A stretch of 64,000 bases of DNA from Squalus acanthias (taxonomy: Eukaryota): positions 136,216,001-136,280,000 of the forward strand of contig CM059431.1 in NCBI GenBank assembly GCA_030390025.1. Reading direction: 5' to 3'. The translations under genes and the position numbers were made by a program. Each line of letters opens with the position of its first letter. The first letter of the stretch is position 1. The notes beneath the pieces were generated by a model. That model was not told the origin of the DNA. It worked only from the letters and a program-made list of their open reading frames with translations, and made no database searches. Below are positions 46,211-47,010 of this stretch, one piece after another.

Positions 46211-47010
46211 CAACTACAAGCGATGGCATCCCACTGAATATGGCGGAAGACTCAGCAGCGTACCTCTTCACTCAGAGCGCTGAAACCGACGAGGCGGCGA
46301 TTGCTGACATCGAGAGGGTACGGGAGAACACAGGAGACTTCATCAATGTGTGGAATCAAGCAAAGAATACTTTACCAGCCGGATGTAAAATCCCGCCCGG
46401 TTTGAGAAGGCAGCACATGGTTGCGATTCGCGCTTACACTGTTGCATCCGATTTCTACAGCACGTTTAATAAGGAAATCAGGGACTACGGCAAAAATGAC
46501 CACATCTATAAAAATAAATTCCACTTCAAAAGTTTCCATTACCTCCTATCCGTCGCCCTGGCTAAGTTAAAGGCCAAATTTGCAACTAACAGTGTAACCT
46601 ACAGGGGAAGTGAAAGCCTGTTCGATGCCAAGGAGGGAGACGAGGTCCGTCTGGGACGGTTTGCCTCAGCCTCCTTGAATAGGTCAGTAGCGGTGGGTTT
46701 CACTAAACCAAATTTAAAAACAAATACATTATTCGAAATAAAGACCAAATACGGGGTCAAAATCAGAGGCACATCCTGCTTCCCTGGCGAACAAGAGGTT
46801 CTCATCCCGCCTCAAGAGGTCTTTAAAGTCGAGAAGGTGGAAAACTGGATAGAGGGAAATAAACAGCGTGGGCGCAGAATTAAACTGAAAGGGATTAAGT
46901 GCGAGGGGATCCCAGTGAGCGTGAAGGTCGTCCGTGGTGCGTTTCAAGTAAAACGGGAAAATAACAATTCTAAGCGTTGCAACTTGCTTTGCAGCTGCTT
47001 TAAAGGTTGA
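46211..47010 (+). CDS. ARTC-family (ecto-type) NAD:arginine mono-ADP-ribosyltransferase, catalytic exon; 281 aa when joined to 40830-40875
   Basis: Acceptor tttcttttaccag; motifs LNMA, AIRAYT, FNKEIR, FHFKSFHYLL, TYRG, GRFASASL, TLFEI and FPGEQEVLIPP (R-S-ExE triad). Orthology to ART1/4/5 is not assignable by eye. Confidence 0.93.

Follow-up and report, generated by a model that had tools for sequence, protein, structure and literature searches.

In a 64-kb window, by which we mean the whole 64,000-nucleotide stretch of Squalus acanthias DNA that was analysed, we find a gene for an ADP-ribosyltransferase of the ARTC family (PF01129) in which R131, S152 and E195 are placed in an ART fold and none of the cysteines typical of bony-vertebrate ecto-ARTs is present. 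Judged from the sequences compared, the absence of these canonical cysteines is a trait of the cartilaginous-fish lineage rather than of this gene. The reading that we favour, with a probability of roughly 0.7, is that the gene encodes a secreted, basic arginine-specific transferase that would act on extracellular or surface proteins upon NAD+ release, the cysteines of its C-terminal tail being engaged in new disulfides.

The preliminary description had located the gene at 46211 to 47010. These limits hold for the catalytic exon and not for the whole gene, since a signal exon lies outside them. The features of the gene, as predicted, are as follows.

40830 to 40875, forward strand: coding portion of the signal-peptide exon (15 codons and one further base, MQLVAYIVVLALRLD), with a phase-1 donor (G/gtaagt)
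40876 to 46210, forward strand: phase-1 intron of 5335 nt, donor and acceptor phases in agreement, with LINE remnants inside
46211 to 47010, forward strand: catalytic exon with the entire mature ART domain, the C-terminal hairpin, the Cys tail and the stop codon
46252 to 46278, forward strand: SAAYLFTQS (residues 14-22), in the register of bony-vertebrate SFDDQYxGC, with a predicted strand at 17-19
46603 to 46605, forward strand: R of the R-S-E triad (TYRG, R131), found in 64/64 cartilaginous-fish ARTs
46666 to 46668, forward strand: S of the triad (ASASL, S152), a serine in 63/64 cartilaginous-fish ARTs
46789 to 46797, forward strand: EQE, an EXE motif with E193 as the arginine-specificity Glu and E195 as the catalytic Glu
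46900 to 46956, forward strand: Cys230 and a clade-specific beta-hairpin (strands 233-240 and 243-248) that replaces the YNC strand of canonical ARTs
46978 to 47010, forward strand: Cys-x3-Cys-x-Cys-xxx-stop tail without a GPI signal, common to 12 of the 64 (pLDDT 37-57)

The catalytic exon follows an acceptor at 46210 that is rich in pyrimidines. Its frame runs without interruption from 46213 as far as the TGA at 47008-47010 and translates into 265 residues (P0001) ending in KRCNLLCSCFKG. A scan of the whole window for an ATG followed by a hydrophobic stretch and a phase-1 donor returned 40830-40875 as the sole match on the forward strand, and the same scan of the reverse strand, used as a control, gave one unrelated locus. 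The segment is also the top tblastn match in the window for the N-termini of relatives, 6 to 8 of its 15 residues are identical to the N-termini of six shark relatives, and its ATG reads with an A at position -3. Joined, the two exons give a frame of 281 residues, compared with 280-283 in the shark relatives P0003, P0006, P0008, P0029 and P0030. For the signal peptide, which was called by hydropathy and homology, the alanine made at the exon junction (position 16) is a plausible cleavage site. The gene, with its exons in matching phase, agrees in plan with ecto-ART genes, in which the leader has an exon of its own and the catalytic domain is undivided; one source places the vertebrate mART domain on a single exon (PMC1266365). 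From this arrangement we infer a two-exon gene with a spliced signal-peptide exon, and the signal exon in matching phase supports the earlier proposal of a secreted product, secretion itself being what such a leader would predict. Acceptor-like sites at 40686 and 40747, upstream of the ATG, suggest an additional non-coding 5' exon. The closest relatives have a leader region longer by about 7 residues; a micro-exon as the explanation for this difference was rejected, the two weak candidates (87 and 96 nt) adding about 30 residues that are absent in relatives.

The gene could also be a non-expressed or decaying copy. Compared with relatives, about six codons are missing from the beginning of its catalytic exon and three residues are inserted before the tail, and no polyadenylation signal lies near it, the first AATAAA occurring about 1 kb downstream within a LINE. 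Both exons are open, however, the splice sites are canonical and in phase, all catalytic residues are kept, the indels are in frame and the branch leading to the gene in the careful tree described below (0.43) is of ordinary length for its clade, all of which makes decay improbable. Three contig sets with the same species label contain none covering this gene, which has no bearing on its expression. A single low-depth contig of 229 nt under the same label, whose origin from RNA is a guess, matches 46503-46572 with 9 differences in 70 letters (87% identity); its loose end continues in frame into K-T-Y-R-G with no Cys before it, and it is apparently derived from a paralog of the same cartilaginous-fish clade. 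By tblastn no second ART gene was found in the 64-kb window, where a motif search for one gave 6 matches against 3.6 expected.

The protein of the catalytic exon matches the Pfam ART profile PF01129, the check originally proposed, far beyond chance (E 7.8e-43, 146.8 bits at a cut-off of 22.3), and rat ART2.2 with E 3e-17. The R-S-ExE triad is intact, as had been described, with TYRG, ASASL and EQE at the places given for them. The catalytic Glu is kept in 64/64 cartilaginous-fish ARTs, in the form ExE in 48, QxE in 15 and HxE in one. As EXE marks arginine specificity among ARTCs (PMC3102197) and E193-Q-E195 fits this pattern, the R-S-EXE motif predicts an arginine-specific enzyme, in line with the preliminary description. 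Such a protein might instead serve chiefly as a secreted NAD glycohydrolase that clears NAD+ from the extracellular space, as for ART5, a secreted ART whose NADase activity lies about 10-fold above its transferase activity (PMC7072381); the QxE of 15 of the 64 relatives is, moreover, the NADase pattern of rat ART2. Against this, the window gene has EXE, and in five reviewed pairs it is the EXE member that modifies arginine (PMC3102197). EXE gives no guarantee of transferase dominance, ART5 being mainly an NADase (PMC7072381), and we consider a predominantly hydrolytic role doubtful, if the most credible of the alternatives to an arginine transferase.

In order to place the missing cysteines in context, relatives were collected by word-based searches and by a profile search of a representative library (best 150 of 4720), which together gave 373 protein ids including cluster mates; 46 of these (45 cluster mates and one metagenomic protein) were left out before counting. 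The cartilaginous-fish set (n = 64) is made up of the window protein, 61 named shark, ray, skate and chimaera proteins and 2 proteins placed through 90% cluster mates, and the comparison set (n = 263) of 151 named proteins, all from bony vertebrates, and 112 without a name. The four canonical cysteines of ecto-ARTs pair into two disulfides, and each was scored as present if a Cys lay no more than two residues from the canonical column. The first (in DDQYxGC) was found in none of the 60 cartilaginous-fish proteins that cover the site, compared with 246/251 in the comparison set, the second (before YRG) in 3/64 compared with 245/263, the third (in TCxG) in 0/64 compared with 246/263 and the fourth (in the terminal NC) in 2/64 compared with 256/261. 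The three cases at the second site form one ray subclade in which the partner Cys is absent, and the two at the fourth site we read as tail cysteines of Callorhinchus brought there by an alignment artefact. The members of this ray subclade (P0043, P0046 and P0049) have no C-terminal anchor. In addition to this single Cys at a canonical site, they have an extended hydrophobic segment at the N-terminus, possibly a signal anchor.

The window protein has none of the four and hence lacks the cysteine pattern of bony-vertebrate ART1-ART7. The replacements noted earlier, SAAYLFTQS for DDQYxGC and TKYG for TCxG, are indeed found at residues 14-22 and 178-181, and the SAAYIFTQ of cartilaginous-fish ARTs aligns in exact register with SFDDQYxGC; the Cys before YRG and that of TCxG, reported as missing, are both present in the aligned ART2.2 and absent here. 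The protein is not poor in cysteine, however: it has six at other sites (58, 189, 230, 256, 260 and 262). Cys58 and Cys189, a possible new disulfide pair, occur together in 4/62 cartilaginous-fish ARTs and singly in 8/62. The loss is confined neither to this gene nor to the tail-less forms: GPI-like and transmembrane paralogs from sharks, rays and a chimaera have it too. A profile built from basal bony-fish ARTs and two chimaera rows recovered no canonical shark or ray ART among its 66 matches, in a word-based and hence incomplete search, and ten unnamed basal representatives that were looked up were all from bony vertebrates, with no shark or ray protein carrying the canonical cysteines among them. 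With 112 of the 263 comparison proteins unnamed, a shark ART of the canonical type may still exist.

For phylogenetic analysis, unrooted trees were calculated from an alignment of the core from which the trait columns had been removed. A quick tree of 100 rows, 50 of them from cartilaginous fishes, separates these from the others with an SH-aLRT value of 98, and a careful tree of 59 rows under a mixture model separates 33 cartilaginous-fish from 26 bony-type rows on a branch with support 98/94. In the careful tree the window protein lies inside a ten-row shark clade with Cys tails (100/95), as sister to the other nine, and all its close relatives are sharks. Narcine P0139, which also has a Cys tail, joins this subclade in the quick tree (90) and not in the careful one. 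The window protein has the characters of the cartilaginous-fish ARTC clade, as this clade was defined within the present analysis: a motif of the SAAY[IL]F type, neither the first nor the third canonical Cys, the C-terminal hairpin and monophyly. The suggestion of a lineage-specific subfamily is therefore borne out at the level of the cartilaginous fishes by the cysteine census and by both trees, and the protein is not nested in a bony-vertebrate ART clade. The 98/94 branch likewise separates it from the orthologs of ART1-7, of which ART3 and ART5 were not knowingly sampled. In unrooted trees a gain of the disulfides in bony vertebrates looks the same as a loss in cartilaginous fishes, and the one distant outgroup row used to polarise the change is half-filled and sits on a long branch. 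An unnamed ENA fragment of 184 residues (P0373) has ART-like motifs without a Cys before YRG and is a possible non-vertebrate outgroup. Several paralogs are found per species, and in Rhincodon, Heterodontus and Pristis paralogs with different tail types lie on contigs of identical length, which suggests tandem clusters.

An AlphaFold2 model calculated with 48 clade sequences (pLDDT 91, pTM 0.90) predicts an ART2.2-like fold, the outcome of another of the checks proposed beforehand: residues 5-246 superimpose on residues 4-226 of rat ART2.2 (1gxy) with Z 26.7 and an rmsd of 2.0 over 216 residues at 29% identity, Foldseek agrees, and the best bacterial match in the same comparison reaches Z 17.0. 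Strands are predicted at 17-19, 233-240 and 243-248, and the hairpin formed by the latter two is seen in both models; its residues are widely kept among the 64 cartilaginous-fish ARTs (V235 in 59, G242 in 55, V246 in 58 and R248 in 52). From the register, and from the disulfides of ART2.2, the N-terminal strand is expected to pair with this hairpin and so to replace the canonical N-to-C disulfide. The tail is disordered or of low confidence in both models, the second of which, from 15 rows of the subclade, brought no gain in confidence there, and the ESM Atlas returned no usable match for residues 214-265.

When the tails of the 64 cartilaginous-fish proteins are classified by a crude hydropathy rule, 32 are GPI-like, 12 are Cys tails, 10 are transmembrane with a cytoplasmic end and 10 are of another type or missing. 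In the window protein the best 13-residue hydropathy of the tail is 0.0, compared with 1.8-3.2 in GPI-like paralogs, too low for a GPI signal; this and the Cys-x3-Cys-x-Cys pattern confirm the Cys-rich end without a hydrophobic GPI tail that had been recognised at the outset. The product would be an ordinary GPI-anchored ecto-ART if a donor at 46915 or one near 47006 were joined to a GPI-signal exon farther downstream. Donors of the GT-AG type do exist in the catalytic exon, and bony-vertebrate ART4 has three exons with the GPI signal on the third (PMC2576468). The donor at 46915, however, would cut away the conserved hairpin, and 9 of the 12 Cys-tail proteins share the same stop, three residues past the last Cys, so we think a further GPI exon very unlikely and unnecessary. 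In the relative P0055, in addition, catalytic domain and transmembrane tail lie within one contig of 1133 nt, so that in this clade the anchor is apparently encoded in direct continuation of the domain.

Cys230 is present in 11 of the 12 Cys-tail proteins and in none of the 42 anchored ones, an association that comes from one clade and so counts as one event rather than as covariation; the twelfth protein has a Cys in the hairpin turn. Most likely, Cys230 and the tail cysteines form new disulfides in the shark Cys-tail subclade. The tail may instead be an attachment device that functionally replaces the GPI anchor, through a disulfide to a second copy, a carrier or a surface protein, or through acylation. 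Its three cysteines keep their exact spacing in all 12 proteins, it is undocked in the monomer models and aligns with the GPI-like tails of paralogs, and the two cysteines of a CxC pair poorly within one chain. With Cys230, on the other hand, the cysteines number four, an even number that fits two internal bonds, the carpet-shark relatives P0002 and P0004 have lost most of the tail, and S-acylation is mainly cytosolic. We regard attachment as unlikely, and the lipid anchor considered earlier finds no support, a luminal Cys tail being read more simply as disulfide-forming. Equally unlikely is a wider proposal in which cartilaginous fishes retain a pre-disulfide ecto-ART and the shark Cys tail is a new covalent attachment module, by a disulfide to a partner or in a lipidated leaderless isoform whose start would be the Met conserved in the catalytic exon; if this is true, vertebrates would have, beside the GPI and transmembrane forms of the paralogs, a third means of positioning an arginine ART, possibly within the cell. 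CaaX prenylation was considered and largely rejected: the protein ends in CFKG, 4 of the 9 proteins stopping there have K, H, D or P at the third position, and a signal exon is present.

Among the transmembrane proteins, P0044, P0047, P0048, P0050 and P0138 from sharks and an electric ray form a slowly evolving type-I ecto-ART subclade (100/100) with a short basic cytoplasmic end and ExE throughout. In a second subclade (P0023, P0052, P0055, P0140 and P0143) the cytoplasmic part often contains clusters of Cys that would suit palmitoylation. We know of no transmembrane ecto-ARTs from mammals.

In the preferred reading of a secreted arginine transferase, the two-exon gene would give rise to a 281-residue precursor that a signal peptide of about 16 residues directs to the ER and that, having neither a GPI nor a transmembrane tail, would be released as a soluble, strongly basic enzyme of 30 kDa. 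Its ART2.2-like fold would bind extracellular NAD+, and the R-S-EXE site would move ADP-ribose to arginines on several proteins outside the cell or on its surface, some NAD being hydrolysed as well. The fold would be closed without the two canonical disulfides by the N-terminal AAYIF strand and the added C-terminal beta-hairpin, to which paralogs would have fixed different ends (GPI-like, transmembrane, Cys tail or none), the shark Cys-tail subclade holding Cys230 and its tail cysteines in new disulfides.

As to its role, an innate-immune or tissue-damage effector active at sites of NAD+ release is the likeliest, if tentative, assignment, which we would put at somewhat under even odds. It is suggested by the expansion of paralogs, by faster divergence (median identity is 58% among the 12 Cys-tail members compared with 78% among the 5 transmembrane ones, paralogs and orthologs being mixed in this comparison), by the basic core (pI 9.7 here and above 9.3 in 9 of the 12 members) and by analogy with ART2 and the chicken heterophil ART. 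The protein had also been called toxin-like, and a venom component, a bacterial-type toxin or a horizontally acquired toxin gene would share its fold with bacterial ARTC enzymes, which likewise lack these disulfides. Its nearest relatives, however, are host ecto-ARTs (Z 26.7 to ART2.2 and at most 17.0 to any bacterial enzyme), the predicted exons make it a spliced gene in LINE-rich vertebrate DNA, orthologs occur in non-venomous sharks and there is no delivery or binding domain; of all the readings weighed here this one is the hardest to credit.

The window is repeat-rich vertebrate DNA in which remnants of LINE reverse transcriptase occur on both strands, together with a Penelope-like remnant and a Harbinger element. 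The latter, a DNA transposon at 56312-60600, has an open DDE transposase frame of 410 residues on the forward strand (56724-57956; DDE_Tnp_4, E 8e-38) and, on the reverse strand, a Myb/SANT frame (59674-60294). Its inverted repeats, near 56344 and 60478, are imperfect, and the element is possibly young or intact. One LINE reverse-transcriptase frame (7468-9237, reverse strand; RVT_1, E 5e-35) runs uninterrupted for 589 residues, and a reverse-strand frame at 52988-54097 with a weak GIY-YIG match below the cut-off (E 0.001) is probably a Penelope-like remnant.

The canonical cysteines are near-universal in the ecto-ARTs of bony vertebrates, at 93-98% per site in the present comparison, and the cartilaginous fishes appear, as a class, to do without them. 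This makes the ARTs of the latter natural test cases for the role of the disulfides and of the anchor and has a bearing on the time of origin of extracellular NAD+/ART signalling in the immunity of jawed vertebrates. In the literature outside subscription journals we found no account of cartilaginous-fish ecto-ARTs, and supplements of genome papers may list such genes; the class-wide loss of the cysteines is apparently undescribed, while the absence of a GPI tail is already known among ARTs. The chemistry expected is the known one, and the gene is one member of a variant of which many are already in public databases, under misleading names. Shark relatives are entered there as 'ecto-ADP-ribosyltransferase 5-like', 'erythroblast ... 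-like' or 'GPI-linked ... 1-like', names assigned automatically by similarity, and P0002, P0007 and P0029 are called GPI-linked yet have no hydrophobic tail, which suggests that ART1-5 names on shark genes do not denote orthologies.

Of the known systems, the closest are annotated proteins of Rhincodon, Scyliorhinus, Carcharodon, Cetorhinus, Heterodontus and Hemiscyllium, which are 44-50% identical to the window protein over nearly the full length and share its N-terminal motif, hairpin and Cys tail. GPI-anchored rat ART2.2 (RT6.2; PDB 1gxy) is alike in fold, R-S-E triad, separate leader exon and one-exon catalytic domain; in contrast to it, the window protein lacks the four canonical cysteines, has the additional C-terminal hairpin and carries a Cys tail in place of the GPI signal, and it has EXE where rat ART2 has QXE (PMC3102197). 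Vertebrate ARTs are described as promiscuous ecto-enzymes, either membrane-bound or secreted (PMC3102197), and soluble precedents exist in secreted ART5 (PMC7072381) and in chicken, which has a soluble ART6 beside a GPI-anchored ART7 (PMC2576468). Mammalian ART5 and chicken ART6.1/6.2, with a signal peptide, no anchor and R-S-EXE, would be the best functional analogues. They are not orthologs here, as the bony-vertebrate ARTs lie with their canonical cysteines across the 98/94 branch, neither of the two being identified by name in the trees. The bacterial ARTC enzymes ExoS, HopU1, Vis and C3 share the R-S-E fold, with a likeness limited to the core (Z 12-17, 14-24% identity).
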